From Cenococcum geophilum (lineage: Eukaryota): 64,000 nucleotides of DNA. How positions within the stretch are numbered: position 1 is the first letter of the stretch; every line of letters starts with the position of its first letter. A program made the translations under genes and the position numbers. This document shows positions 2,140 through 64,000 of this stretch, in pieces. Location of the stretch: contig CP158635.1 of assembly GCA_050273025.1 (NCBI GenBank), forward strand, positions 16,616,001 to 16,680,000, read 5' to 3'. The notes below the pieces were generated by a model. That model searched no databases. It was not told the DNA's origin and saw only the letters and a program-made list of their open reading frames with translations.

Positions 2140-4809
2140 ATATTATAGGATAAAGCTATTTCTAGAGACCTACAGAAACACTTTCTCGGCACGGTAAAGA
2201 TTGCTCTACAGTATCTAAAATTTTACGGGCCTAAGGAAGAGCATCTTAATCTAGACCATATCTCTTATTTAGAAAAAGTTTTTAAATAGGATTGCGCTTG
2301 ACTTAATCTAGGGAATTACGTCCCTACGATTATTAACCCTACGGAATTTGATATGTTGGTCCAGAAATCTGGTACTAGAAAACACCTACTAAAACTACTT
2401 TACTAAGAACCACCGAGGCTCCCTATACAGAATAACACGTTTTTACTTTGCTTGTATAGCAGGCATCGCATTGCGGCAGCTTAGAATATGCTCTTCTTAG
2501 AGGATAGATAGTAGTGTGCTGACCTATATTTATTAGGTTTGTTTACAGCTTTATCTATGGTTAATTAATCTGATAGGGATAGGTATATCTAAGCGAACGG
2601 GGATATATATTTAAGAAAGGTACTTATACGCTCGAAAAGCTACCGACGGTAAAGTATACCAACTAGTCCGCTTCTATCAATCTTATAGGGATACGTTAGG
2701 CGAACAGAGATGGCTCCTTTGACTAAGTAACAACAAATAGGGTAAAGTTATAAACCGGATCTAACAACCTAAACATAAATGGTTAGGCCATGTAATAGAT
2801 ACGCTTTTGCCGTATATAGGGTTATGGGGGGACCTTAAACTTAGATATTTTTCTATAATATAGAGTTGGAAGTGCCTAGAGGTTTACTTCCTATAATTAA
2901 GATTTTTTAGTACATTACTTATAAATAATAGGAAATCTATTACTATATTAGGCATATACAGCGAGTTTGGAAATTTATTACCGATGATGACGAGTTAATA
3001 CTGCCTTTTCTTGGCGAGAGTATGGTCCGGAACCTATAATCCCTTATACTGTTAGTATGTTCTAATGATAAAAATCTGGTAATAATATTAGTAAACACCA
3101 GTTAGGTTTTTCCTAATATGCCAAATTTGCTACGCCCAAAGGTCTTAACTTAGTTACTTAAGGTACCGGGCATAATCTTAATATTTAAAACATTCTTTAA
3201 AGATTTAAAGTATCTTAAACCTGTAATAATAATCTTAAGGGGAATACTACCGCTGAACTATAAAGATTCTGTAAGAGAGATAATTACGCGTTGCTATATA
3301 GGCTTATCAGAGTACGACGGTTATTATTTAGTTTAATTTAGTCTAAATAGAGAGCGTTGTGTGCCAAACACCCCGGAATTACTTATCCGCTATCATTAAC
3401 TCTGCTTATACTCACTACGACATTTTCCTAGCATAACCAATATATCTCCATTAGTAGATAGAAGAAGTAAAAAGGATAACATCGAAAGCGGTAAAAAGAG
3501 CAATAACTCCGCTAGAAAGAGGGCTTAGTATAAGTTCGCGAGGCTAGCTAGTAATCTTAGGTTTAAGTTAAAGCCTATTAAGGAACTTCTAAGGGAAGAC
3601 CCTAACAAAGTAGAAATCTAGGTTTTCCTTTATAATCGGCGACCTAAAGAATTATACGAAATCAGTGACGAGGATTTTAAATCAGAGGTAGACCGCCAAC
3701 TGGAAGTGCTTTATGCCAAATTTAAGCGGCAAATACTCCTAGGCCCCACTCTCACTCTAAGCGTTGATTTTAGTAGTAAGCCTATTAATTGTAGATGCGG
3801 TAAACCGCTATAGGCTTCTCATGTCTCTAATAAGAACCTTTTATTCCTACCTATATTATATAGTGTGAATGATATAGTTAGTCCGAAAGCTATGCTTACA
3901 TCGTTCGTAGTTAAACGATTTATTTTCTTCTGCTTTTTTGGGCGGCAAGATATAAACGATTTCGACCTTTGGATAAAAGAGATGCAAGCACCTGCGTTAG
4001 AAGTGCCTAAAAGTGCTCATTTGGCTGGCTACGAGCAGCAGTAGAGCTACGAGCAGCAGTAGAGCCACGAGCAGCAGTAGAGCCACGAGCAGCAGCAGAG
4101 CCACGAGCAGCAGCAGAGCCACGAGCAGCAGCAAAGCCACGAGCAGTAGTAGAGCCACAAGTAGTAGCAGAGCTATAAGCAGCAGCAGAGCTACGAGCAG
4201 CAGCAAGGGAGCAATGAGCAAAGTTAAATAGGTCACCTTATGGTCTGGCGGCCTCCTAAAACTACTATAACAACTGCTTAAAGCGCCCTTTTTACTATCA
4301 AATCTCTATCTAATAAATATAAGATCACAAATCAGGTTGCTTTCTTTTAAATTATAACCTTAAAATATAGCAGGGTAGGGAACAATAGCTCTGCTATAAA
4401 AAATATAGCTTCCGAAATTGCAGACGGATATTTTAACAATAACTTTATTGGAGCGCCTTAGAAATTCAAATACGTTATTACGGACTTTCTACAGTTAATA
4501 GATATTATAGATATCTATAATAGAGCTAATTTAACAAACACGAATTTTCTGCGGGTTATTTTTATTCTAGACAGAGGATCTAAGTTACTAGATATACGGT
4601 TTCTTGGGAAGCCTTTTTCTCAATATATGGATCTATTTTATAGTGGTAAGGCTATAAAACGAAAAGTACTAAAGGACCAGCTATTAACTCCTAACAATTT
4701 TATAAGAAGCGTAAGACTTATCCAGTAAGAAATCCAACCTACGCTACCCCCTAAAACGCAGACTAGGCCCGAACTTCGCCCGTCTAACGAAGATTTGGAT
4801 GAAATTTAG
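2140..4809 (+). pseudogene. DUF3723 family protein (Starship auxiliary gene), RIP-inactivated
   Basis: Motifs FLGTVKI, CLYSRHRIAAA (=CLHGRHR), DR**CADLY (=DRWW.VDLY), ATDGKVYQLVRFY, EQRW and RCGKP. Short introns and many RIP stops are present. Confidence 0.8.
4027..4206 (+). repeat. 18-bp coding tandem repeat (~10 copies; HEQQQS in the DUF3723 frame)
   Basis: AGAGCCACGAGCAGCAGC units. They generate the spurious RATSSS and LLLVA ORFs in the track. Confidence 0.9.
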
Positions 4810-45788: not shown

Positions 45789-47090
45789 ATGGCTTTCCCG
45801 CCCCCTCCACACCCCCATCGAACAGCAAAGCCTCACCTGAAACACCAGAAATACCAGAGACACCAAAGACACCAGAGACACCGGGGACCGCGAAATGCCA
45901 GTCCTGGCTCCTATCTAGGAAATGGCTACCCATTGCTGGAATTATTACTCTCCTGCTTATTGCCATCATCTGCGCTGTCGTCGCAACGCTCCTCCATCGA
46001 CGAGAAGTGACAAGAAAAACCCATACAACACCCTAGGGTTCGCTCCTTTTAATAAGCGCTCGAAACCAACTTCCCCAATCCCGCAATTCTAAAACACAAC
46101 GGCACCTGGTATGTCTTTGCAACAAACAATACTGCGGGCGTCCTCCACTAACCAGATAATAAGACAATGGCGGATTATGGCAAATCACACGTACAAATTG
46201 CCACGCCTTCAGACTTTGACACTTAGACGCTCCACAATTATATCGAAGACCTGTTACCCACGCTTGGAGACTGGGTTGCAATGGGTTGCTTGAATGTGTC
46301 AGAAGTCAACGCAACAATTCCGTTGAATGCGCCTGCAAATAACGTCAACTCTGCAAACCCAGCCCCCGGCCCAAACGTTTGGGCACTAGATCCCCCCCAA
46401 CGACCACCCGATGGCAAATTCGTACTATACTACTCCGCAACTGCAGCAAATGCCTCGCGAAATCATTGTGTCGATGCAGCTTTGCAGACGTGCCGCAGAG
46501 CCCTTACAGCCCGTTGCCCACTCCTCTTGCCTGTCCCACGGAGCTCGGTGAGCCATCGATCCATACCCTATCATTAGCATAGACGGCACAATATACGTGG
46601 CATACAAGGTTGATGGGAACAATTACGGTCATGGAGGTATCTGCGGAAATACAGTTCCGCCTTTGGTGGATACTCCGATCCTCCTTCAACGCCTGGCGGA
46701 AGATGCTATTACGCCTGTGAGACTGCCTGTCGATGTTATGGATCGCACGCGTGACGATGGCCCTCTTGTCGAAGCGCCGACGCTTGTACGGAGCGACGAG
46801 GGTGTGCATTTCCTCTTCTATGGCTCAGGGTGTACACGTATGCCGATTTATGACCTCGAGTATGCCACTAGCACGAAATCAATGGCCCATACAAGCGTGC
46901 CTCCGGACCGTTATTGATGACGGGGGATTGGGTCCTTCTAGCATCGGGCAGCGTATCTGTAAGGCGCGATGAGAGCCGATGGCGCATGGCGTTTCATGCA
47001 AGGGTCGTGACACCATTTGGTGGTGTAAGAGAAATGTTCACAGCAGCATCGATTTTGAATGGGACGACTGCCGCTTTTGACTGGTCTTAA
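45789..47090 (+). pseudogene. Glycoside hydrolase family 43 with N-terminal TM segment; disrupted
   Basis: [62 protein letters not shown] and MAFHA. In-frame TAA (46149) and TAG (46224) plus several frameshifts. Confidence 0.88.
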
Positions 47091-47261
47091 AAACGATCAA
47101 ACTTTGCATAGGGAACGGAGTTCTTGCAGCATTTAGCCCGGCGTCTAGAAGTTAATTGTATCTCTGACAATCTGGCATATTGGTTAATTATTTTTTCAGT
47201 AGTTCCATAATTTCGTTGACAATTGGTGCTATTTACTCTTTGCAGCATCAAAACATTACTA

Positions 47262-49013
47262 TCATGGTCGTCTTGATGTTTGAAAGGCTTGTAGAACAAG
47301 TGTTCGATCGTCGTCGTACAACTTCTGTCTTGCCTCTTCTTCCGCCTTTGCTATTCTACGGGCTTCACTCGAGAGCGTCTCCCATCGTTGTCTTTCTTTC
47401 TCTCTGCGTGAGTTTTCTCTCTGATCTCTCTCGCTAAGCCGTTGTTCGAATGATACGGGTGGTTCTACTGGTAGATGTCAACGAGTTATTCTCTTAGCCC
47501 TGGAGTTACTCTCCTTACCGTTATCTGAGCTGTCGAGATCTTTTGGCCCGAAGGCACGGGCCATCCAACTATTTACGCGTTCTTTTGACTGGTTGACCCT
47601 CTGTCCCACAGGCCCAAGAAGCACAATGCGATGAACATCTAACGTCTCTGACATCTCCGAACTAGAACATGTCAAGTCGTCTAGATGTTGGGTGAACACA
47701 TTCAGGGACTCAAGAGAGTCCTCACCAATGAGAACGTCAGCAACCAGGTCCTTCAAGACGTGGAGTTCAACCATTAAGACATTGCGGTACTGCCCGTTGT
47801 CGTCTCCATTCTTAGCCAATTCCAATGTACTGTTAGATGTAGAAGCATCTTCCGCATCGCTGCCAGGCGGTTGCTCTGATGGAAACCCTCCCCCGGAGAC
47901 GGGATCAGGAGAAATAATACCCATTTCAATACCGCAGGCACCAATATACAATTGTGCGCGCACCATTCCACATGTCTGACCAATGCTGCCGTCTGCAAAC
48001 ATAACATTCATCTCTTTTGGCTCAATGGAGAAGCCTCGTTGCTGTGCATAGGCTTTGGATATGAGATCCACCTCCGAGCCACTATCAGCAATAGCCTGAA
48101 CTTCTTCTCCATCTAAAGAACATAACAGTCGTTGTTTTTGCTTTCCAATAGCCCGAACTCGAAGCCACGGTGGGGCTGAAAGGGTAAGATTGACCAGCCT
48201 ATTGCGGTACTTTGTCAACGTCTGAGTCTTTTCCAGGAAGCTCATGCACATTATGAGAGGCGATGCTAATGTCCGAAAGACATAGAAAGTGCACAAAAGA
48301 TTCGAAGGTCCGAGGTGGGACTCTGTCCCAAAACCACAAGCGGACATAGTGCGTCCGCAGCAACTGACCACTTTTCCATTTGCCATCCTGAAAGCCCTCT
48401 CTTCGCTTTTCTCGATTTGCAGGCCCAGCTTCAAAGCCAGTTCTTGAGAAATTACATTCTCTTCACACCCGGTGTCCGGGCTTGCCATGACTGTAGCCTG
48501 GCTATCACCCATTTCGAAGGTTATGGGTAATCCCTTCCGCGTCGATACTTTCGGGATTATTCGGGCCTTAGGCCGCTCTGGATTAGGTGCAGAAATCTCA
48601 GTATCAGTCCTAAAAAGTTTTCAGAAACCGATGACTGAGTTTTCAAAAGATAGATCAGATTTAACTTACCATACATGGCTGCCAATCCCTTGGAGTCTTC
48701 CATTTCTCTCACAACCCAATTCGTATATTTCCGCGTCCAGTCCTCTAATGATTTCCATTGACTTGTCAATGGAAGCTCTGAATTTATTACCTTCACGCTG
48801 CCACCGGTTTATGCGATCAACTTCTGCTGCACGACGTCGCACTTTGGTATCGATCTTTTCACAAAGCTTGCACTTCTGGCCGACTGAGACCGTTTGCATT
48901 ATTAGCTTCATTCCGCACGTCTCTCCTATCCTGTACTCCCGATTGCAATGCTGTCGGAAGTGACCCCATTTCCAATCTCCACACACGAATCGGTACTGGT
49001 CGAAGAAACACAT
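47262..49013 (-). CDS. Fusion of a Cys-rich/helical N-terminal domain with two tandem retropepsin-like aspartic protease domains and a charged helical tail (~546 aa)
   Basis: Predicted exons 49013-48670, 48609-47519 and 47467-47262, with GTAAGT..TAG and GTAAGG..CAG introns that keep frame. Catalytic-type motifs ASPDTGCEENVIS and AIADSGSEVDLIS; flap-like MANGK and FADGS; VLIGED. Confidence 0.8.
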
Positions 49014-49572
49014 TGAAATACCTTTGCCGAAAACAAAGCCGTGATACAGGATTTATAGAATCCTACACAGACTAGGCGATACAGTTCAGCATTTGTATGC
49101 ATCCTCAATCGCGTTTACTCACCAATGCCTACAGACCTTAATCTTAATACACGCTCGCCCACCGTAAAGAATGGAAGAGTTATTGAAAGTGCAAGGCTCA
49201 AACTTGACATTAGAGAAAAGCAATACGGTTGATCTGGGAGTTCTGGGAGTTTTGGGGGATAAAACCACCAGGGAGCGACACATCCAGATTCTGTGCGGAC
49301 CAAGGCAGTGTCCCATACAGCCAATCTAATTTCATCTGTGTGCTCAGCCTTGCATAAACGGAACGGGCACCCGCATAGCTCGTAGCTCACGTGACTTAGA
49401 TTCTCCAATGAAACCTTGAAAACCCGGAACCATCCTGCAGGTTGACACGGGACATCAAGTGAATCTCGTGGCTGATAAGAAACCCCGGCAGATTTGCCTC
49501 GTATAAGCAATCAGACCGGTGAAGCAGAGAGCGTAAAAGTCCGTTTCAGCAGTTAAGAACATTCAGAAAGAT

Positions 49573-50656
49573 ATGGATATTGAAGCCACAGGCATGGCAC
49601 ATCATCACTTAACTGGGTTTCCTTCTCTTGCTGCGTTCATTGCCAGTGACCAGGACAAGACCGCAGCCATTTTCAAACGCTTCGATCGCTTAGCGGCTCG
49701 CAATCTACTGCATCTGCAGAGTGAACTTGCAGAGCTTCAAGCTAGACAGGACAAACTTGATCAGCAAGAACTGAGCAGGGATCTTCAATCAAAGCAGTGT
49801 TCCCGAAACTGGGCTGACTTCTGCACCGCAGCAGCGTCGGAAGCAAGGCAAAAGGAAAGAATGGAGTTAGCTCAGAACATCAGAGTTACTCTGAAAGAGT
49901 ACCGTAAGATACTCGGCAGCCAATGAAAAAAACCTCTCAGACTCGGAGACACTAACCGGGGCAGGGAAATCACTGCTATTCGAAAGCACTCTCGCCACCT
50001 TACCGCCACCTACGAAGAGAACCCTGGAAGCTTTTCGCTGGCACTTCTTCAATGGAGACCCTACCGGACCCGACAGCTTCCCGACACTTGGTGGTCACAG
50101 CTGTGACCTCTTTGACGATGCAGATGACCTCGTGGTCCTAAGAATGGCTGAGGACCAAGACCGGTTGACTACATTTGTTCAAAACCATTTGACGTTCCTT
50201 TTCCAGGCACGCTTCCATCGAATTATCAGGCTTCTCCCACGTAACTGACCAATTTGTAGACATATACCAGGAACGGCATGATTGCCTATGCCTCCGATCA
50301 ACGCATCGCACGATTTGTAGCCATATTAAGCATCATTATCGCCGCAGTGCTGCTCATCGGGGCTATTGTGAGCTTATACGTCGTCAAGTCACCAAACAAA
50401 AAATTGGGAATGATAGCCGCCTTCACTATCGTTTTTGCTAGTAGCATTGGGATTCTTACCAATGCGCGGAGAGCGGAGTTGTTTGCTGCCACAGCCGCGT
50501 AAGTAGCGCAAATATCTTCTGTCACTTATGTGCTTTTATCCTTAGAGAAAGTTTATAGTTGATAATTCGGCTCGCAGATATGCCGCGGTACTTGTAGTCT
50601 TTGTCAGTGGGAGTTTGGGTGGAAATGTAGGAAATTCAGGCACTTCGAAGACCTGA
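49573..50656 (+). CDS. DUF6594-like membrane protein (~296 aa, three C-terminal hydrophobic segments)
   Basis: Exons 49573-49903, 49965-50206, 50260-50498 and 50578-50656; the second intron is GC-AG. Motifs GFPSLAAFIASD, IFKRFDRLAARNLLHLQSEL, LKEY, DDLV and ELFAATAAYAAVLVVFV. Confidence 0.85.
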
Positions 50657-50899
50657 AGAGCAGTTTTTACTGGCCAGATGACGTCATATGCTAAAAAAAT
50701 CTCCACGCCGTTACTTGCTGTTAGCAACTTATTACTCCTAGGTTGTGCTATCTCACTGGACTTAACTTTTTAGCAATAAATAGGTGGTATATGTTAAAAT
50801 TTCGAGGTAACTTATGAACTAATAGCGTCCCTACAATCTATTCTATGCAGTAGCAAACCAACCACTTCACGGAAGAGTAGCAGGTTAACGTCTACTTCT

Positions 50900-51980
50900 A
50901 TGAGCACCCCACAGCCCCAATCTCCAGCCTATTTATTGTGTTCTTCACCGGATTCGCTAGTTGTCGTACAGTCGCCACTTGAAGATTCCACTACGTCGCC
51001 ATCTACATCTTCCGCCACAACCTCAGGAATTTCTGTCTCCAACCATGCTGGTATTTTCCCGCCAAACAGATTCCGGACTGCGACTCTATTCTTCTGATAT
51101 CGTTCTTTGGCCCATTTTGACCGTGTATCGAGTCAGGCGTTGTACCCGACTCTGCGAGATTTTTCTTCATTGGACCGCTATGAGGGTCTTGTCCGCCAGG
51201 GGGCTGTTCACGACTACTTGTACAGCTGACGAAAGTGGGGCACTGCAATCCTCGTGATAGTCATTTCCATTATTTTCACTGTATTTATCGTCTTCATTGC
51301 CTTCATTGCCTTCATTGCCTTCGTCTTTATCATATTCTCCCAGTAGAGGTGGCGTTAGGGACGGAGATGGAGAATCCAATGGAGATGGACAAAGAACAAT
51401 CCCTTTCTCGATATTTCCGATGGATTTTCGGCGTTGGTCTGCAACGCTAGGCGGTGGATACACCGAGAAAAGCCCAGATGAGAACCGGCTTTAACGTCTT
51501 CTCAACTCAAGCTTTCCGTCAGGGACGGAAACGTGCTCTGTCAGATCCTCAGTGGACAAAATTTCCTTTTGTGCCTCTTTGGGCAGCAGATCAGCTGTTT
51601 GCTGCGTATCGGTCGAAGAGAGCTTCGCCTTTGCTTTTCTCTCTTTAGCTGGTGGCTGCATTTTCAAGTTAGCATTGTCATCCTGGGTGCTCTTGCCTTT
51701 ATACAGCCTTTTGGTTCCTGTTTCCTTTGTCGATCGTTTGTTTTGGGTTCGTGGAGGGGTTTGTGCCAGAAATACTGTCTTCTGCGGGATGATTAGGAGG
51801 TTTAGCGTTCCTCTTAGGGCGTTCAGAATAATTAAGGGGTCGTTCAGTTGCAGCTTCAGATTGAATCTGAAGGCTTCGGAACAGAACCGATCTGAAGCTC
51901 AAATCTGATTCTGACGCGATCGTTCGGTCAAGCTGACGACTTTCTAGTCTGAAGCTCCTCCGGATCGGTAAGCGCGTCAA
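50900..51980 (-). pseudogene. Degenerate low-complexity coding remnant
   Basis: Overlapping partial ORFs with K/E/S/P-rich and EGN-repeat content, broken by stops and frameshifts. No family recognised. Confidence 0.3.
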
Positions 51981-52199
51981 ATTTGAAAGCTATACCGTAT
52001 GTAGTAGTTAAACTGAGGCCCTTGGTGTTAGTTTAATAAGGAGTTCGGAGCTCCTTATTTTAAATCCAGTTTAAATCTAAAGCCCAATTAACGACTGCTT
52101 GTAATGACGACTCCACGACACCCTAATCGCGACGCTATTTTAGTCGCGCTTGTATATATTTTATAACGTCCTTATCTTAACTCTCGCGATCGCGGTAAT

Positions 52200-53200
52200 A
52201 TTGCTTCCGCGCGGTGTTCGTACTTAGCATACTAATATACGGAGAGGCATGAGGTGGACGACGCAGTAGCTCTATGGCCATGAAGCACGACTTCTAAATA
52301 TCACCCGGATAAGGCCCGACGTGTTTAAGAAGCTCCTTAATTAGCTATAGGTGCACGGCGGCCTTAAGGATACAAAACTTCTATTAGCGGCTAAGAAGTT
52401 CAGAATATTCCTAATAATATTTAGTAATAATGCCTCGTATAAGTTACTAAGGTAACTTAGCACTTATCTATAACGATCTACTAGTAAGTATTTATTAGCT
52501 ACTAGCTAAACTCCCTATATTAATTTGCTGCCCTATAGAGCCATATATAAAGTCCTTTCTAGCCTTCTAAAATTATATCTAAAAGAGATTATAAATAACC
52601 CTAAATAATATCTTTTCTTTACTAATTGCATTAAGCCCTTAACGGTCTTATTTTCCTATTTCTATTAAGGGCGGCTATATAATATAGGCCTCCTAGCGCA
52701 GTAAGAAGGAGGATTAACGTAAAACGTATTTATAGCTATTAACTTCTAGTTAGATAAACTTCGTGTACGTTTTAGCTAAATAGGAGGGTATGGCCTATAA
52801 TAGTAGAGTAATTAGCTCTGCTAAAGTTAAAGGGTTTAAAGCCTTACCTAGTAAATACTACGTTATAAATACTAGGTACTCTAATATATCTATAACGCTT
52901 ACTCCTTACTATAGTATATAATATTATCTTTATAAATAGGTATAGGTAAATATAAAACCTTAAAATATAAAGGAGTTCTTTAATCTTTAATATACGGCGT
53001 TAAGGAATATAGTAGAGCGTATAATATATATTTTTAAGAATTGGTTTAGATTTTTTAAAGCTAGTAGGTGTAATATACGCTTTAATAATAGTTTATAACT
53101 TTATTAATATATATAATCTAGATAGCTTAGATAGCTTACTAATAGTAGAAGATAAAGAGATAAATAAGGAAAATAGGAGGCTTGTAAATAAGGAGAATAA
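52200..53200 (+). mobile_element. PIF/Harbinger transposase remnant, RIP-mutated
   Basis: FVYVLAK*EGMAYNSRV (=YVLAGWEGSAHDSRV), KYYVINTRY (=YYLADAGY), LTPY, and EFFNL*YTALRNIVER (=ELFNLRH..LRN.VER). Confidence 0.85.
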
Positions 53201-55079
53201 TATAAATAAGCAAATTTTCTAAGGAAAATTCCAAATTGCCGACTTATAGCCGGCAATTTTGTCCTTTTAAACCAAGTACTGCCCTACTACTGCCCTTTTA
53301 CTACCCTACCTGCCCTTTTACTGCTATACCTACCTTTTTACTACCCTGCTACTGCCCTACTACTACCCTACTACTACTGCTATTGCTACTATTGCTATAC
53401 TGTCCTATAGTAACACCTCTAGATATATAATATTAGTAGGTACCTCAGAGCTCTTGCTGCACCCGGCCTAAAAAGACTAAAACCAACTAAAAGAACCCTG
53501 AAAAACGCCTAGAGAATCCCCCTAAGATGCATGCATCGCAGGGGAGGCACACGTCGAACGACGGTGGTTTGTACTTGCGCGCGACCGCCAGAACCACGCC
53601 TAGCAATAGCCCTCCACAATAAAGATGGGTGAATACCACACTATAAAGCGGAAATACCTTTATTAAGAAAGCATCTAATAAAATATAAAGCTTATTAGAC
53701 GTGTTTAGTATCTAAAATTATAGGGGAGTAACTATTAGCTATAACGATTTAACGTAGCTAGTAGAATGGCTCCACCAGTTTAGTAAACCTTAGGCGCCCC
53801 TTTAGTAAACCCTTAATTAAATCCTCTAACGGCTAAGTAAAATTAAAAGTAAATAAAAACCCCCTTTACTAGCAAACCGCACCTAGGCCGCTATAGCTGC
53901 GCTTTTATAGTATAGGGAACTTAACCCCCTTAACATAATAACTGGGTATATAATTATAATATAATTAAATATAGAAAAAGCAAAGGGATTTAGGGGATAA
54001 TTAGAAATAGAAGTTCTTATAAAGATTTATAAAGAGGTCTATAACGCTGTTATAGTTTAATACCTTAAAAGTAGAGATATTAAAATTACCTTAAAGAACT
54101 AATAGGTAAAGGAACGAGCTATAAGGGTAGGGGATAGGCTAGGAGAATATATTGGTATAAAAGTACTCTATAAGAACTACCTAGTTAAAGTCCTAGTAGT
54201 TTTTATAAGCCTTAGGGTAGAAAAGGGACACTAGGTAGATAATAAAGTAATTATATAAGAGATAGTACGATAAATGGAACGCCTTATACTAGGATTTAAA
54301 ATCACCTAAATTTAATAGCTTTAGTAAGAAAATATAAACTAAGTAAATAATAAGAATAATAAGAGGATATAAGGGTTGCTAGAGACTTATTAGGGAGATA
54401 CTAAACAAATATATAGCTCCCTTATTATTAGTATATATATACTAGAAATGCAAAAACTCCTTATTTAAAAAGGAATAATTATAAACGGCCTTATATATAA
54501 TATAAGGCTCTATAACTATAGATTACGCCTAAAATAATACTATCGCTGTATATAATAGGGATACACCTAATCTATATATGCAGTATAGGTATACTATAGC
54601 TACTATACAGGTCCCTACAATATAAGATACTACTTAAATTAAGACTAAATAAAATGTATAAACTACTACTAAAGCATATATAAGGCGTAGGAGAGAGAAG
54701 ACTATATTAAATATAGGAGACGGAAGGTAAGGGCTTAATAGCTACGGGAATAACTGTACGCTAGGTTATATAAATAGAAATAATAAGTAATAAGCTAAGG
54801 GGGCGTAGGTGCCTTTTTAGCGTTCCCTACCTTTAATACTAAGGGGCTAGGCTAGCCTTCCCAAGCCTTAACGGGCTAAAAGTAATGCTATATAATATTA
54901 CTAGACTATATAGGGATATAAGGGTTATAGGGGATATAAGGGTTATAGGGGATATAAGGGTTATAGGGGATATAAGGGAGAGGACGCCCTATAGGAAGAC
55001 CCTTATAAATAGCTATAGTAAGCTTAAGACTAGGATAATTAAGAATTAGACTTAATGCGGTAAATATAATATTTATAGC

Positions 55080-57315
55080 TGTTACGGAAGTAGGCACGAG
55101 CTGGAATACAATATACTAAACAGGGTAGTAATTGAAGAAGGCTACGTACGTGTAACTATGCGTGGTTAATACAAAGACATTTGGATAAAGAAGAAGATTC
55201 TTTATGTGCCAGGTCGGGTATAAATAGGGGTTATAGGGGAACGTGCGTAGGTGTCTCGGGACGAACGTAAGCACGGGTTAAGAACGTTAAAACGCGCAGG
55301 GACGTGAGAACGTGTGAGTCCCGTGATAGTACCCCCCCCTTACTTCCGAGCTCCTGCGAGGCGTGTCGTGTATACAGAAAAAAACCTAATACGGGAAAAA
55401 AAATTCGTTAGCCCTTCTCCGCCCTTCTACGTCCTCCGTTACACAGGCTTCTCCAGTTCGGTCCTTCCATGTTTGATTGTTAGGCTACTAACTTATTAGG
55501 CCCAAAGCATAGCCTAGCTTCTATCGCCAGCTATACTTCTGTCCTCGCCGCTTGGAGACGCATTGCTGAAGCTTATATAGTCCCTTTCTCGCTTCTAGCA
55601 GCTCTACGGCCTTCCCTTCCTATACTCTAGGTCCCCCTAAAAAATTACCCCAATTTTTGGTCTAAAATGGGCGTTTTAGGCGGTATTTATCGGCCTAAAC
55701 GGCAGTATAGTACGGTCAGTACGGTGTTCGTGGTTGTGGTAAGGCATATTCTTGGCAGGTTCTTATCAGTGCGGTGCAGTATTCGTATCGTAGGCAGGTT
55801 CTTGTCGGTGGCAGTACGGTGCTAGCGTAGGTTCCGTAGGTATATCGGCACGGGATCTTATCAGATTCGGGTAGCAGTATGGTGCTAGCGACGTGTTCGG
55901 GTTCCGTAGGCGAATCGGCACGGAGCTTATCAGTTCATATGGTAGCAGTACGGTGCCAGCGACGGGGTCGTCTCGTAGGCATATCGGCACGAGGCTTGTC
56001 GGTTCGGGTAGGTAGCAGTACGATGCCAGCGACGGGTCGTCTCGTAGGCGTATCGGCACGAGGCTTGTCGGTTCGGGTAGCAGTACGGCTCGAAGCTTAT
56101 CAGTTCAGGTAGTAGCAGTACGGTGCCAGCGACGGGTTATCTCGTAGGCGTAACGGCACGAGGCTTATCGGTTCGGGCAGCAGTACGATGCAAGCGACAG
56201 GTTAAGGTATCCGAAGGCAGATCGGCACGGAGTCTTGTCAACAGGTTCGGGTAGCAGTACGATGCCAGCGACGGGTCGTCTCGTAAGCGTATCGGCACGA
56301 GGCTTGTCGGTTCGGGTAGCAGTACGATGCAAGCGACGGGCGGCTTAAGACAGTCTGGGCATCGGATGCGAATAGCTTCGGCGGCGGCAGTACGATGCTA
56401 GCGACAGATTCGGGCGGCTTAAGACAATTCGGGTATCAGATGCAGAGAGCTTCGGCAGCAGGTTCGGACGGTGGCAGTACGGTGCCAGCGACGGGTCGTC
56501 TCGTAGGCATATCGGCACGAGGCTTGTCGGTTCGGGTAGGTAGCAGTACGATGCCAGCGACGGGTCGTCTCGTAAGCGTATCGGCACGAGGCTTGTCGGT
56601 TCAGGCAGCAGTACGATGCAAGCGACGGGGTCGTAGGCGTATTGGCACGACGGGTTATCGGGGTCGTTTCGCAGGCGTATCGGCGCGAGGTCTTGTCGGT
56701 ACGTAGGGCAGTAACGGTGCAGGTCGGTAGGACAGCAGTACGATGCCAGCGCCGGGGTCGGGGTCGTCATGCAGTAGGATGCGAGCCATCAGGTCAAACC
56801 GAGGGGCAGTAACGTGCCTGTTCGTAAGCGGTAGCAGTAGGATGCAAGCCATCGAGGTCGCAGGCGTATCGGCGCGGTGTCTTGTCGGCAGGTCGTGATT
56901 CCACAGGCGTATTGGCGTGGTGTCTTGTCGTACCAGTTTAGAACCCCAGCGTCCTAGTCTACCCGCAGCCAGCAGCTCCTGTATCTACCCCGTAGGCGTA
57001 GAAAGGCATGCTCCGCGACCAGTAGCCTACAGGCCCGCCAGGTATAGAAAAGGGATCCAAATGTAGTGTCACGGAAGTAGGCACGAGCTGGAATACAATA
57101 TACTAAACAGGGTAGTAATTAAAGAAGGCTACGTACGCGTAACTATGCGTGGTTAATACAAAGACATTTGGATAAAGAAGAAGATTCTTCGTATGCTAGG
57201 TCGGGTATAAATAGGGGTTATAGGGGAACGTGCGTAGGTGTCTTGGGACGAACGTGAGCACGGGTCAAGAACGTTAAAACGCGCAGGGACGTGAGAACGT
57301 GTGAGTCCCGTAACA
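55080..57315 (-). mobile_element. Complete non-autonomous LTR retroelement (TRIM/LARD-like, 2236 bp)
   Basis: 249-bp LTRs at 55080-55328 and 57067-57315 (TG...CA-type ends) with a perfect 5-bp TSD ATAGC. A poly-G purine tract on the minus strand abuts the left LTR. The interior has no gag/pol. Confidence 0.93.
55800..56930. repeat. Internal array of two alternating hairpin motifs
   Basis: About 18 copies of GCAGTACGRTGC and about 13 copies of stem-AGGCGTATCGGC-stem, usually followed by CTTGTCGG. Confidence 0.88.
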
Positions 57316-57909
57316 ATAGCTAACTTTTAAAGGGTATATAGCTAACTAGTAAGAATAGGGGAAGAACTAAAGATAATAATAGATTTAAATATAAAAGCGC
57401 TAGTAAAAATATAAGATATAGGAATAGAAAGCTCTATATAAAATAAGTAGTAACTAGGGTATAGATATAAAAGATAGAAGTTTTAAATGTCCTAAAGAAA
57501 GTAAAAATAGAAGAAGTAAGGAATAAAGGAAAGGTAAAGGACCCTTACTAGGGGTCTGCCACCTATCTATTATATAGTATAACTACGGCAATGTAAATCA
57601 CTGTCTTATAAGGCCCTTACTAAACAGCCTAGACTTAGAGAAATACTATATCCTTACTATATAAGAGCCGTATTATAATGCCTATATATAATTAATATAC
57701 TACCCCTAAGAATTCTAGCTCCTATATAAACTAAAAGCAGCTATACGCGTATGCTTTATAATTAGTAAGGCTATTAGCCTGTCCTTATAGTTATAGTAGG
57801 CAGTTAACCTAGATATTATAGTTATAATAATCCAGATATATAGGGGACTGGTATAGATTATTAATATATATAACCCTAGGGTTAAAGGGGTCCTATAAAT
57901 AGAGAATAT

Positions 57910-59030
57910 TATAACGGCGCTATCGCACGTTACCTGCCAAATTCTGCCATATTCTGCTAACCTACAATTAGCTCGCCCAAAGCTAGCGCCTTAGCGGCTC
58001 ACCCTATATATTTATTTACACCGGTCCTAATAACCCCTTTTCCTTCTCCTTAGCTTAGTATCTTTGTAATATAGCATTCTATAAGCTTCGGTTTAGAGGC
58101 ATTTATATAAGCCGTAATATTATACTAAGCTCACCCTACCTTGCCTGGGAAGGCCTTAATAATATCCCACCCTAAAGAAACTTCGTCTGCAATAACGCAT
58201 TAACGCGCTATACTTAGATACTAAAATAACTCTATATTGCCTGGGAAGGCCTAGATAATATCCCACCTTATAAGCTAGATAGAACTAGACCTATACCCCT
58301 AGAATTAAAACTAAAGTATATAATACCAATAAACCTTAAGAAGCTAATAATGGCACCTAAAGTAAGCTTATTTAAGAGAGCTATCTCTACCTAAGAGGAA
58401 CCGGAGATCTAATTAGAATTAGAAATTAAAGATAATAATAACATCGTAAATATACGCGAGTAGATTTATGCCTTTATAGCTAGCTAGGAAGCCAATTGTC
58501 TTAAAGTAAGAAATATATAAGAGACCTTATAAGAGATCCTAGAAAGCCTTATAGCCCTATAAAATAGCCTAGCTTCCCCTTTTTAAAGCCCTAGCTAACC
58601 TGTTTACTCTACTAAATGCAATATACTAGGGAGTACGGATATAATAACGAAGTAATTAAAGTCCGTTAAGCTCTTTAACCCCCTACCACTATTTAACGGG
58701 ATAAACCCTACCTTTAAGAATTGGAGGATTTAAGTATAAGGAAAGCTCCGCGTTAACTATAACTACTTCCTTTCTAAAGAAGCTAAAATGCTCTACCTCT
58801 TTAGTTAAACTATAGGGGACGCCTAACGGCACCTTTAAGCTAAGTTTCAGGATAATTTCCCTATCTAATTTATATCTGTTAATAAGATAATATAGTACCT
58901 AGCGGCTATTTATATTAACCTAAATAAAGTACAGGATACCCGTTATAACTATAATTGCCTAATAATAAAACTAAACTAACCCTTTACTAAATTCTAGACT
59001 TAATTTTTACACTTTATAGGAGAAGGCTAG
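57910..59030 (+). mobile_element. Ty3/gypsy element: 5' LTR (57910-58119) and gag, interrupted
   Basis: LTR ends TATAACGGC...GCCGTAATA. The gag-like frame reads PLFNGINPTFKNWRI*V*GKLRVN...GDA*RHL. Confidence 0.75.
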
Positions 59031-61587
59031 TGTTACGGACGCTTTAAGTACGATGTTACGACTACTTAGAGAGGAGTTAAAAGAAGCTAGTTAGTTAATC
59101 TAGGCACGGTCTAGGATGGAGCCAATAGAGCTATGTGACGAGGAATAGTAACTAAGGTTATATAACATGCTATATATTAAATAAGAGGAATAAGAGGAAC
59201 TTACATACCTTATATATAAGACGTACATTACGTATAAGAAGGATTTTATAGGAGTACGGGTATGTATTTAAGGACCCTCAGTCCCTACCTAGATAGTTCC
59301 TTTCTTATAGTAATTCTTAGAATACAATTAGAGTTAATCTGTTAGGCAACCACTCTACTAGTTATTATTCCGTTATTAACTTCTTATACTTATATTTCCT
59401 ACACACCTAGCCTAATAATAGGACCTACCGTAGTTCTTGCTATAAGGTTCCGTTATATAATTACTACCTAGTTACGGTATTAATATAAGAAAGTTGAATA
59501 ACATGCCACCAAAAGCAGCCACCATAACGCTATTAACGGCGGCAACTACTTTAAGGTTAGATGACACCAGTATGGCAGATACTAACTTATAGCAACCTAT
59601 AACGGTCAGACAGTTATAAGAGGTAATTAATTAGTTAACAGCTAATAATACAGCGTTGGAAGAAAGGGTTAACGGGATTAGAGTAGTAAAGGTTAAGTTA
59701 CTATCAATTAAAAGATTCTTAGGAGAGAGATTAAAGCTTAAAGGATTCCTTACGCAAATACACTTTAAAGTAACGTAGGAAGGAGCTAAGCTACCAACAC
59801 CTATAGATCGAATAGCCTACGTAAGACTATTCCTGTTAGGAAGAGCACTTAAGTAGTTTAAGCCTTACCTTATAGAAATATAAACAAACAGAATAATAAC
59901 CACTAATTAGGAGGTGCGGTTTATATTCTTAAGCTAGGAAGGATTTATAGAGCGACTTATATAAATATTTAGAGACCTAGAGGCAGTAACCATAGCGGAA
60001 AGAAAACTCCAAGACATTACGCAACGAACTTTAGTAATTAAGTATATAATATAGTTCTAGACATTAGTAATATAAGTTAAGTAAAATAATAAGGCGCTTA
60101 TAGCATAATATAAGCAAGGACTTAAGGCTAAAGTCTAAGATATAATTATCCTAATGGAAGATACAGATACCCTACAGAATTTAATAGATTAGGTAATTAA
60201 GATTAACAATTAAATCTACCAAAGGGAATAGGCTAAAAAAGGTTAGAATAGAGTTTTATAGTTATATAAGACGTAGAGTATGTAACAACTAAAGCTAAGT
60301 TAGAAACTATAGTATAGCGCAGAGCTAATAGACCTAAGTAATACTAAAGAAGCCTATAAGAGATAGAGTAAAAAGCTATAAAAACCTAAAGGTTAAGGAT
60401 CTAGTAATTATAGGACTAAGGAGCAGAGGCTAAACTAGGGATCTTAGTAGTAGAAGACGTTTAGGCGGACTCTATAGCAAAGTTAATAGTTTAAAGACGG
60501 AGCTTATATAAATTATAGGAAATAAGGTTATTTTATAAGGGATTATAAAGATAGTTAGAGTTACTATATAATAAAGGGAACTAGACTAATAGCAGAAGAC
60601 ATATATATATAGAGGGATAATAGTATACTGCAAGGAATAAAGGAATGTTTAATTAAAAGTTTCGCGTTTTGTTATAACAACGCATACTAAATTTATAAAG
60701 ACGCTAAGTATAGTATAAGCTATTGGCTATAGGAGCTAAAATCCTTAAATTATAGGGGAACTAATAAACTAGTTTATAGATCGGATATTAAGGATAATAA
60801 ATTTAACGAAGGCGAAACATTTTATAACAACGAGGTAATAAGAGTAGCTTACTAGGAGCATATAGACCTCCAAGATGTTATACTAGAGGTAGAGAATAAT
60901 TCTACTATAGAACCGGGAATATTAGTAGGGATTAAGACCTACTAGATATAATATCTATCGCTTTATAAGACGTAAGAAAAGTAGGACAGTAAACTACTTC
61001 GGCACTTAATAAAGGCAAAAGGCTAAAGGCTTAAGATTCTTAAGATAAGTTAAAAGATAACTAAGATTCTTAAGATAAGATAAGGTAAGCTTAAGGACCT
61101 ATAACAGACAATAACCGATAAAGTAGAGTAGCGGCTTAGTTTAGCAATATACAAATAAGCTCGGGATAGAGTTTCCTACAGGTATAAGACTCTTAAGACG
61201 AGATAAGTAAGATTTAAGACTCTTAAGATAAGATAAGAACACTAAGTAAGCCTAATTGGACTAAGGCTAGAGTAAAGCTTAAGTTAGAAGCAAGCTTAGG
61301 ATTAAGAATCCTATGGAACTAAGACTTTAAGACACAAATAAGGACTATTAATAAGATTAGAGAATCTGCGGTATAAATAGTAACTAGACTAGGAGATAGG
61401 TATATAGACCCGGAAGACTTATTAGGGGAACGCAGTGTTTAGCCTAAAAATTAAAAAGTTAATACTAAGATTAAGAAGCAGGAAAACTTTAAGGATTTAT
61501 TAGTAAGACGTAAACTAAAAGAAACTATAGAGGAATTTAAGTAAAGAATTATCGCATAGTAAGAATAGAAACTAGATAAGAGATCTA
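59031..61587 (+). mobile_element. Second Ty3/gypsy element: 5' LTR (59031-59457) and gag region, interrupted
   Basis: LTR TGTTACGG...CCGTTATA. Gag reads MPPK...FLGERLKLKGFLTQI...GLKAKV*D, with a degenerate zinc knuckle at ~60500-60545. Confidence 0.8.
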
Positions 61588-64000
61588 TGTAACGGAACCT
61601 TGTAGCAAGAACTACGATGGGCTCGTTATTAGGCTAGGTGTGTAGGAAATGCAAGTACAAAAGTCAACAACGTAATAACAACTAGTGGAGTGGTTGCCTA
61701 ATAGATTAACTCTAATTATATTCTAAGAATTACTACAAGGAAAGGAACTATCTAGGTAGGGACTGTGGTCCTTTAAATATACATCTATACTCCTAAGAAA
61801 GTCGTTACTTTATTTACTCTATCTGCTCTATCTACTCTATTATAGATTATATAGATTATATAGATTATATAGATTATATTACGTGACCTAATTACTATTC
61901 CTCGTTATATAGTTCTATCGGCTCTATCCTAAACTATACCTAAATTAACTAACTAGCTTCTTCCGTCTCTTCTCTAAGTAGTTATAATATTATACTTAAA
62001 GCGTCCATAATACTATCTCCCTCCTCTTTATCTTCGTCCTTAAAGATTCCTAATATTTTTAAGTTGTTTACTAGAGGTATAATATCTGTCTAATTAATTT
62101 AGTTAATATCGTTACTTATAATACCTAAGGCTCCTTTATCCTCTTCTATAGTTTATTAATCTTATACTATTACTACGATACTATCTCTTAGTAAAATTAT
62201 ACCGTCTCTATATTCTCGTTATTTAAAAGAGGGGTTAGTCTATATTACGCTAGCAAGTCCTTTATCTTAATAACTATCCTCTTATTTAGAGTACACTAAA
62301 GCAAATATATAATTGTCCTATAATGTTTACTCTACTTCTAACGCTAAGTATGCGCGTTCTATAACTCTTAATAGTCTTTTAGTTCCCTAATTAATTTGTC
62401 TTAGGGTCTTATATTTAATCTACTGCTACGCGGCTAGATAACGAGCTATTAGTCGCTTTAGCTAAACTTTATTATTTTTAGGATACTAAGAGAGAGGCCG
62501 CTAATGCTTAATAATATACTCTAGACTCTCGTTTGGCTGCTTCCGCTTAGTTAATCCGTCTTAAGAAGGTGCGTAAGAAGGTGCGTTTTAAGGAGTAGAA
62601 ACTTATAGAATAAGGTTTATAGGAATTAGGTAATAAAAGAACGGACTTTCCTCTAATAGAGAAGGAAATAGATCTAAGTAGTTTAGTAACTGCTCTTTTT
62701 AGGTCCCCCTTAGGTAACTTATTCTTTAGCGATCCTTTTTTATTAATACTACCTAACCTAATCTCTTCTAATACTCTTATACCTTTTTTATAGCATTCTT
62801 TAAATTCTCTAATAGCTTCTAGGTAGTCTTAGTGTAGCCTATCTACTTAACCTTATACTATATTTTGTTGTTAATATTCTTATAATTAACGATCTTTAAT
62901 ACTTACTATTTGTCTTCTTCTTATCCTTTATACGTATCTGCTTTATAAACTAGTAGCTTAATATTCCTATATACTGGCTTTAGTATTGTAATATGCTATA
63001 TAGGGTAGATCTTTATTTTAGCTAGTAGGTTTAACTTAAACGTAACCGGTAAAATCTTCTACGTAATTTTAAAAGGTCCTAGTTTAACGTAGTCTAACTT
63101 TTTACTTAGTTGTTAACTCTTAAAATTTTTATATAGTAGCTATACTTTATCTCCCTCCTTAAGATCTAGTCCCTTAGATCTCTTAGCATTATAGTACTTT
63201 TTTATTCTTTCTTATACTTTCTTTACTAATTCCATAAGGTTTATATAAAGATTTATTAATATCTTTATTCTTTCTTTAGCTATACTACTCGTTTTCTTTA
63301 CTTGCCGTAGTAACAACAATATTCTTAGCTTATATCCGTAATTTGCCTTAAATAGTAATATACCTATTCCTTCTTAAGGTGTTATATTATATGCAAACTA
63401 TATAACTAGTAATAGTAATACCTAATTATTTTATGCGTGATTAATATAATGCCTTAGATACTGCTCTAGCGTCTAATTTAATCTTTCCGTTTAACCGTCT
63501 GTCTGCGGATAGTATGCGGTAAAAGTTACTACTTAAACTCCTTACTCTGCTAAGAATACTTTTTAGAATACTACTATAAATCTTAGATCTCTATCTAATA
63601 TAATTTTACTTAGTACTCTATATCTTATAAACACTTCTTTAATATAGATTCTAGCAATATCTTCTACTGATATTTCTTCCGTATAGGCTATAAAGTATCC
63701 CCACTTCGTAAGCTTGTCTATTATTACTAAGATTACGTTATAATCTTATCCGGTAATAGGATCTCTTAATTTTAGTAACTTAATAATAAAGTCCTATAAT
63801 ATAACCTCCTATAGTCTTTCTAGTGTTTTAATAAGTTATAGCCCTCTATACGGCTTATACCTTATTAGTTTATTCCTTTAGCAATTTAAATATTCCTTTA
63901 TAACTTTTCTAGCTATCCTTTAAATTCCGTTAATAATGTACTCCTTCTAAAGTCTTAACACTAAGCCTATAGCTCTATTATATCCTTAAGTTAGTCCCTT
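61588..64000 (-). mobile_element. Chromodomain-type Ty3/gypsy element of the same family, inverted: 3' LTR 61588-62012, integrase and chromodomain
   Basis: The LTR is the reverse complement of 59031-59457, with an adjacent purine tract on the minus strand. IIDKLTKWGYFI, PQTDG*TERLN*TLEQYLR, KLDYVKLGPF (GPY/F) and a chromo-like YKVK*IGY..T*. Confidence 0.88.

Follow-up and report, generated by a model that had tools for sequence, protein, structure and literature searches.

DDI2 is a cytosolic aspartic protease that activates NRF1, a transcription factor tethered to the membrane of the endoplasmic reticulum. Fungi likewise possess proteolytically activated C2H2 transcription factors, namely PacC/Rim101, which depends on Rim13 and membrane proteins, and Stp1/2, which depends on Ssy5 and Ssy1. 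A further precedent comes from fungal gasdermins such as HET-Q1, which with HET-Q2 forms a two-gene cluster of a protease and a membrane-acting protein in long evolutionary association; Clave et al. 2022 (PMC8851545) found fungal gasdermin genes clustered with S8 protease genes in 63% (1187/1884) and with CHAT protease genes in 19% (353) of cases. Here, we describe a pair of divergently transcribed genes from Cenococcum geophilum that invites comparison with these systems. The pair lies at 47262-50656 of a stretch of 64,000 nucleotides, referred to below as the window (GenBank assembly GCA_050273025.1, contig CP158635.1, forward strand, positions 16,616,001 to 16,680,000). Gene A, on the minus strand, encodes a tandem retropepsin, and gene B, on the plus strand, encodes a membrane protein of the DUF6594 family (PF20237). 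The two genes diverge head-to-head from a 559-bp spacer at 49014-49572, in exact agreement with the coordinates of the initial annotation, which had read the pair as a gasdermin-like, protease-gated module for cell death or allorecognition. Our analysis leads to a different view. The adjacency of A and B is deeply conserved and specific to these two genes, and in filamentous ascomycetes (leotiomyceta) the pair makes up an old unit whose two genes are transcribed divergently and have been passed on together by vertical descent. Their products probably act in one pathway, as a functional protease-partner unit in membrane-linked regulated proteolysis or signalling.

The evidence for linkage comes from metagenomes and from named genomes. 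A metagenome scan with a gene A alignment returned 72 loci, and a DUF6594 profile was run over their six-frame fragments. In 45 of the 72 loci, a DUF6594 gene was located upstream of the gene A relative, always on the opposite strand, and the gap between the first aligned codons was 175-1868 nt in 44 of these 45. Among the 27 loci without an upstream DUF6594 gene, 17 have less than 1.5 kb of upstream sequence, nine represent a single lineage on JAABU contigs, and in one (L049) the upstream space is taken by an 825-aa open reading frame (ORF) of its own. Clustering of the A proteins at 85% identity gave 33 lineages: 26 with a head-to-head B, two informative ones without an adjacent B, and five uninformative. 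At 50% identity, the 20 clusters comprised 17 with the pair, one informative exception and two uninformative, and at 40% identity the 12 clusters comprised 11, none and one, respectively. The pair is therefore present in 26/28, 17/18 and 11/11 informative lineages at the three levels. Of the two exceptions at 85%, one is without any B; in the other (L067), B lies 5.4 kb from an A copy in which the DTG of the first lobe is gone, and the ORFs between the two genes have no Pfam family. The nine JAABU loci (L030-L059) are one genomic locus in several assemblies and not a repeat. Several of these copies are frameshifted and one is intact; their A carries zinc fingers, and a methyltransferase-like ORF is found upstream.

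The same arrangement was observed in annotated genomes. In four cases, the best homologues of A and of B came from contigs of equal length. Adjacency was evident in five named genomes: by consecutive accessions in Decorospora and, when 20 further gene A representatives were examined, by consecutive locus tags in Plenodomus lindquistii (NX059_006446 and NX059_006447), Monosporascus sp. of the Sordariomycetes (DL765_007849 and DL765_007850) and Glutinoglossum americanum of the Geoglossomycetes (FGG08_003809 and FGG08_003810), and by consecutive gene ids in Neocucurbitaria sp. (089180 for A and 089170 for B). The A and B accessions of Clohesyomyces and Zopfia are two apart on the same contig, and both genes share one contig in Plenodomus tracheiphilus and Glonium stellatum. 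According to taxonomy, the named linked genomes fall in Dothideomycetes, Sordariomycetes and Geoglossomycetes. The recurrent adjacency of DUF6594 and retropepsin genes, for which the initial annotation had suggested a test across Pezizomycotina genomes, is thus borne out, both by 26 of the 28 lineages that are informative and by named genomes from three classes.

Two controls speak for the specificity of this linkage. No other flanking ORF family occurs in more than seven lineages, and these seven form a single group of close relatives, with B proteins that share about 76-85% identity with named Alternaria proteins. When the 3-kb slot upstream of A is set aside, the 234 kb of locus sequence contain only three additional DUF6594 genes. 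In two lineages, another DUF6594 gene, of more divergent sequence, was also seen downstream of the protease gene (L020:5112-5429, L046:5122-6167 and L069:11116-12151). Across 24 lineages, the pairwise identities of A and of B are correlated (r=0.86; none of 2000 permutations reached this value), and B is always more conserved than A, with mean identities between lineages of 50% and 32%, respectively. The linkage, the correlated divergence and the reshuffling of all other neighbours together indicate that the pair is old, has been co-inherited and has been kept adjacent.

Gene A spans 47262-49013 on the minus strand in three exons, and splicing by coordinates yields 546 codons with a single terminal stop. 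Transcript support was sought in public RNA data; among 24 runs listed, 18 contain all or part of the window, eight of them recorded as RNA, and four runs (X1, X2, X7 and X19) were compared over 46000-52000. Exon 1 (49013-48670, ATG at 49013) encodes an N-terminal segment rich in Cys and His and, after it, a coiled coil. The exon is lineage-specific and has no Pfam family match; tblastn against the 72 metagenome loci found the segment kept only in L001, L002, L004, L005 and L006. Seven Cys residues, including one CxxC, are encoded in this exon. Intron 1 (48669-48610, GT..AG) is documented by a joint at 48608>48669 (CT..AC, cut +1) in an X7 contig and by the exon 1/2 junction in the Logan protein P0001, which is 100% identical to exon 2. 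Exon 2 (48609-47519) encodes both retropepsin lobes, with the DTG codons at 48476-48468 and the DSG codons at 48086-48078. Support for intron 2 (47518-47468) comes from homology: its splice appears in none of the four RNA runs, and the homologues P0005, P0006, P0007, P0010 and P0014 run uninterrupted into the same tail. This tail, encoded by exon 3 (47467-47262, stop at 47264-47262), is charged and helical with a conserved DQREN motif, and tblastn detected it in 20 of the 72 loci.

Several lines of evidence identify the product of gene A as a protease. Exon 2 matches PF13975 (2e-11) and PF13650 (6.3e-11), each in two stretches. In an alignment of 175 family members and the window protein (176 sequences), the catalytic Asp of the D[TS]G motif is present in both lobes in all 167 relatives that cover both sites, which suggests that proteolytic activity is under selection. 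The hydrophobic-hydrophobic-Gly motif is present in lobe 2 as L-I-G. At the corresponding position in lobe 1, the window protein reads I-M-C; Gly occupies this position in 142 of the 176 aligned sequences, and Cys in 11 including the window protein. The nearest solved proteins by sequence are the protease domains of DDI1/DDI2 (E about 2e-5). The predicted model of the homologue P0005 (73% identical; predicted local distance difference test, pLDDT, 81.6) shows two lobes rich in beta structure, preceded by a helical hairpin at the N-terminus and followed by long helices at the C-terminus. Foldseek superimposed both lobes together on single-chain tethered dimers of HIV-1 protease (about 290 columns; template modelling score normalised on the target, 0.65-0.72) and on 9iy9, a putative endopeptidase of Bacteroides fragilis (E 6.6e-7), with weaker matches to plasmepsin, BACE and single Ddi1 domains. 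The model thus has the dimer-like double psi-barrel of the retropepsin fold, and as modelled, the two lobes of gene A imitate in one chain the retroviral or DDI1 homodimer. A differs from the tethered HIV-1 protease dimers in being a naturally occurring tandem fusion that carries long inserts and is extended by helices. The ESM Atlas yielded nothing more specific than generic retroviral protease clusters. Hydropathy analysis revealed no N-terminal hydrophobic run, no signal peptide-like run and no credible membrane segment, the sole borderline hydrophobic window lying inside lobe 1. Unlike pepsins, A has neither signal peptide nor propeptide and no match to the Pfam A1 family. From these sequence features, gene A is predicted to encode a catalytically competent cytosolic aspartic endopeptidase. 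The tandem retropepsin family is represented by 1195 clusters at 50% identity (E<=1e-30). Pfam scans of 25 long A relatives found ANK repeats in one and C2H2 fingers in another. The protein P0165 of Endocarpon pusillum (768 aa) is a tandem retropepsin with ankyrin repeats.

Gene B spans 49573-50656 on the plus strand, and splicing of its four exons by coordinates gives 296 codons with a single terminal stop. Exon 1 (49573-49903, ATG at 49573) would encode the start of the cytosolic domain and the first arm of a long helical hairpin, exon 2 (49965-50206) the second arm and a small beta element, exon 3 (50260-50498) a juxtamembrane linker, the first two membrane helices and the beginning of the third, and exon 4 (50578-50656) the remainder of the third helix, followed by a short tail and the stop codon. 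All three introns are supported by RNA. The joint 49903>49965 of the first was seen in X19 (8 reads), X1 and X7, and the joint 50498>50578 (GT..AG) of the third in 26 X19 reads and in contigs. The second intron (50207-50259) has GC..AG borders, and its joint 50204>50258, with two ambiguous letters, was seen in X19 (8 reads), X1 and X2; the transcript-derived protein P0022 has the identical junction. The annotation of the Glonium stellatum orthologue (P0023) reads through this GC..AG intron, which truncates the protein.

Exons 1, 2 and 3 match PF20237 with 66.4, 27.3 and 67.1 bits (E 4.9e-18, 4.1e-06 and 2.8e-18) at profile positions 1-85, 88-153 and 163-232 of 238, where the cut-off for a whole protein is 30 bits. 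Close full-length relatives of gene B carry PF20237 as well, and no Pfam family other than DUF6594 was found above threshold in gene B. Hydropathy analysis indicated three strong hydrophobic segments at about residues 204-288. In the model of P0022, which is 92% identical to the window protein (pLDDT 75.7), a helical hairpin at residues 38-121 and a small beta element are followed by a low-confidence linker at 195-199 and helices at 204-232, 236-257 and 262-284. Gene B has therefore the layout of DUF6594, a helical N-terminal domain followed by C-terminal hydrophobic helices. Fold searches gave no further lead: Foldseek returned no PDB match at E<=0.001, a wide VIA-align search returned only generic helical hairpins (best Z 8.7, within the helical noise range stated for the tool), and no usable match was left in the ESM Atlas after leaving out DUF6594 clusters. 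Of the 120 listed relatives of gene B, a single one bears ankyrin repeats, and a protease domain was found in none. A DUF6594 protein with ankyrin repeats is P0134 of Fusarium langsethiae (1211 aa), so the DUF6594 and tandem-retropepsin families have each gained this type of interaction domain independently, in one case each. With respect to the individual proteins, the initial annotation was accurate. The splicing script, Pfam and hydropathy analysis agree with its description of gene A as a spliced, uninterrupted tandem retropepsin without evident signal peptide, and Pfam, hydropathy analysis and the model agree with its description of gene B as a DUF6594 protein with a helical N-terminus and three C-terminal hydrophobic segments. 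The profile search that it had suggested as a check returned the families given above, PF13975/PF13650 for gene A and PF20237 for gene B.

A hint of function comes from fused forms of the protease. Two annotated A homologues, P0014 of Decorospora and P0144 of Truncatella, end in zinc fingers. With such tails as queries, tblastn located a three-finger C2H2 module in 30 loci, where it immediately follows A in the same orientation; these loci correspond to 13 of the 33 lineages, JAABU included. The module sits beyond the protease and the helical tail (for example, L013:7031-8741), and in L021 one uninterrupted ORF of 620 aa (2851-4713) holds both protease lobes and the fingers. When compared with PDB sequences, L013:8346-8741 matched ZNF410 (2.1e-13), GLI (6.2e-13) and WT1 (1.4e-11), and P0156 passes the Pfam cut-off for zf-C2H2 (25.7 versus 25.2 bits). 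A strict C2H2 regular expression missed the fingers owing to their atypical spacing, and tblastn and phmmer were used instead. No match to the module was found in the window at E<=0.01 (tblastn), and the closest relatives of the window's A (L001-L006 and L008) are also without fingers. Gene A of the window either lost the fingers or never had them; its Cys/His-rich exon 1 may encode a metal-binding domain specific to this lineage, one that came about where fingers are absent. The zinc-finger forms suggest that the pair is concerned with regulation and not with killing.

The combination of a cytosolic protease with a membrane-anchored partner, whose cytosolic part is a coiled-coil domain, and with a DNA-binding domain that many lineages add to the protease is best accommodated by membrane-linked regulated proteolysis or signalling. 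As we picture it, B would consist of a folded cytosolic domain, with a long helical hairpin at its core, that three C-terminal helices hold in a membrane, and it could serve as membrane anchor or regulator of the protease A, or as its substrate. If B is the substrate, A would cut it near the juxtamembrane linker; in zinc-finger lineages, cleavage would free a nuclear regulator. A more specific version, which we put forward tentatively and consider doubtful as it stands, is an undescribed signalling route of filamentous ascomycetes, with the pair at its core, in which B is a membrane sensor or anchor that holds the protease-transcription-factor protein until regulated cleavage at the membrane, in cis or in trans, frees the finger part. 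In finger-less lineages such as the window's, another fragment would be released, with a change in gene expression as the outcome. If true, it would provide a counterpart, made up of two genes, to the NRF1/DDI2, PacC/Rim13 or Stp1/Ssy5 routes.

The comparison with these routes is instructive in both directions. Like DDI1/DDI2, A is a predicted cytosolic aspartic protease with D[ST]G signatures and, in lobe 2, the hydrophobic-hydrophobic-Gly signature, and in both cases a retropepsin, a membrane protein and a transcription factor are linked, for A-B in concept. However, A consists of two lobes in a single chain instead of a homodimer, and the ubiquitin-like, HDD and UBA domains are absent from Pfam scans of the window exons and the 25 long A relatives. 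In contrast to NRF1/DDI2, the DNA-binding domain, where present, resides on the A-type protease itself, and B is without one. PacC/Rim13 and Stp1/Ssy5 likewise combine a C2H2 regulator, an endoprotease and a membrane component in one signalling route; in the A-type proteins of 13/33 lineages, a protease and C2H2 fingers are joined. The proteases of the PacC and Stp1 routes, unlike A, are calpain-like or serine proteases encoded by separate genes that are not known to be clustered, and the window's A has no fingers.

Some observations weigh against a shared pathway. In the JAABU lineage, which has an intact A, no DUF6594 gene was found within 7-10 kb upstream. No A-B fusion protein was encountered, with a protease domain in 0/120 listed B relatives and DUF6594 in 0/25 long A relatives (Pfam). 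Zinc fingers are missing from the window's A, so the transcription-factor side of the model cannot be carried over to this protein directly. In 24 A-B spacers, no 7- or 8-mer rose above the maximum of shuffled controls. Run X19 shows expression of gene B and almost no sense RNA of gene A. Finally, a conserved bidirectional promoter alone can hold two unrelated genes together.

This last point is the core of the alternative that survives best, namely that A and B are only co-regulated, through a compact bidirectional promoter common to both or through sense and antisense transcripts that overlap, and that their products never meet and serve different processes. The transcript data give this explanation some footing. 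The spacer (49014-49572) contains divergent promoters: gene A has an intron in its 5' untranslated region (UTR) at 49072-49122, documented by a joint at 49071>49123 (CT..AC) in one X7 contig that also carries the splice of intron 1, and transcripts in the direction of gene B begin near 49306-49352, with X7 record 15 starting at 49352 and 12 X19 molecules starting at 49306. With the 5' UTR of gene A extending beyond 49123, the transcript starts are roughly 150-200 bp apart. Run X19 consists of stranded raw reads from a strain 95-99% alike, for which gene B served as internal strand control. Over gene A (47100-49400), nearly all RNA in this run is antisense (plus strand, depth 25-66), and the sense depth is at most 0.9. 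The antisense RNA has its own GT..AG introns (48182>48236, 48182>48279, 48583>48651 and 48584>48648) and may be regulatory, or may represent read-through from the upstream gene. The lack of fused A-B forms among the 120 listed B relatives and the 25 long A relatives also fits genes that share no more than their regulation. With gene B expressed and sense RNA of gene A nearly absent, the two genes are not simply co-expressed in the strain and condition of X19. On the other hand, the distance between A and B ranges from 175 to 1868 nt and no motif common to the spacers was detected, so a fixed promoter architecture is not the conserved feature. The arrangement moreover spans three named classes while all other neighbours have been lost. 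The correlated divergence of A and B does not discriminate between co-regulation and a common pathway, since it is expected under common descent. On balance, we regard mere co-regulation as unlikely, though it deserves serious attention.

The proposal of the initial annotation, that B is a latent membrane-damaging effector activated by cleavage through A in the manner of HET-Q1/HET-Q2, fares considerably worse. It draws its appeal from the conservation of a protease gene beside a membrane-protein gene, as in the fungal gasdermin clusters, from the modelled amphipathic helical hairpin and hydrophobic helices of B, and from the ankyrin-repeat fusions found once in either family (P0134 and P0165). 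The likeness does not extend to the parts. The membrane-acting partner there, HET-Q1, has a gasdermin fold, to which DUF6594 bears no detectable likeness: no gasdermin was found for B in Pfam at E<=1 or in the Foldseek and VIA-align rows, where absence from a fold list does not exclude the family. B has no Pfam match above threshold beyond DUF6594, and its fold matches in the PDB are generic hairpins only. According to PMC8851545, fungal gasdermin clusters contain S8 or CHAT proteases, often with an architecture like that of NOD-like receptors (NLRs), whereas A is an aspartic protease and has no S8, CHAT, NACHT/NB-ARC or repeat sensor parts in Pfam scans. No NLR-type part was found by Pfam in the 25 long A relatives either. 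The evolutionary pattern also differs, as the het-Q alleles are idiomorphic and the A-B pair is conserved and vertically inherited, with B strongly conserved. The initial annotation had suggested looking for patchy distribution or balancing selection. Instead, A and B co-diverge, and in L001 and L002 the exons of both genes share 94.9-100% identity with the window and, taken together, are no less conserved than the flanks, a comparison of three haplotypes only. Such near-identical haplotypes, three in number, point to purifying selection and not to divergent alleles. Together with the zinc-finger fusions of A, which point to gene regulation, the missing pore-former likeness, the missing S8, CHAT and NLR parts and the vertical inheritance make a gasdermin-like death or allorecognition module very improbable. 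We infer that the cellular role of A and B is a conserved one, and that they do not form a polymorphic system for death or allorecognition.

Finally, the two genes might be chance neighbours in a small gene island amid AT-rich repeats, with no relation beyond their source genome; the island at 41-52 kb (46-52% GC) is indeed surrounded by sequence of 30-40% GC, and the neighbours on either side of the pair seem decayed, but the same arrangement in 26/28 informative lineages and in named genomes of three classes refutes this explanation.

The surroundings of the pair can be described as follows. The window is mostly 30-40% GC, with the gene island standing out at 46-52% GC at about 41-52 kb. The flanks of the island (1-41000 and 52000-64000) consist of long stretches of 28-40% GC, with a short block of 60% GC at 56-57 kb. 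The L001 contig is without the window segment 43260-45655, and insertions or deletions thus differ between close relatives. The initial annotation had described both neighbours of the pair as decayed. On the left (46000-47100, plus strand), we found a weak fragment of GH43 (E 0.0012, below the cut-off) with ORFs in three frames and no splice between them, which fits a pseudogene, yet few parts of the region are transcribed as strongly as this remnant, which reaches a depth of 43 in X19; an upstream intron at 46108-46162 is spliced in all four runs. On the right, the ORFs at 50.8-52 kb have no Pfam family above the cut-off and one weak SAXO5-like match (E 0.0049).

The literature searched contains no mention of DUF6594 or PF20237, supplementary files being outside the scope of that search, and likewise no mention of 'retropepsin' together with 'Pezizomycotina' or of six locus tags of B relatives. 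In a paper on the co-option of fungal transposons, PF13975 appears only in a count, as a frequent domain. Both domain families are already catalogued, but neither the A-B pairing nor the architecture that joins protease and zinc fingers seems to have been described. DUF6594 is a large fungal family without known function, and the tandem retropepsins are a large, unstudied family; their pairing provides the first functional context for both. If A and B do act together as a protease-partner unit, they would represent a new regulated-proteolysis pathway in fungal cell biology, shared by many plant-associated and saprotrophic ascomycetes.

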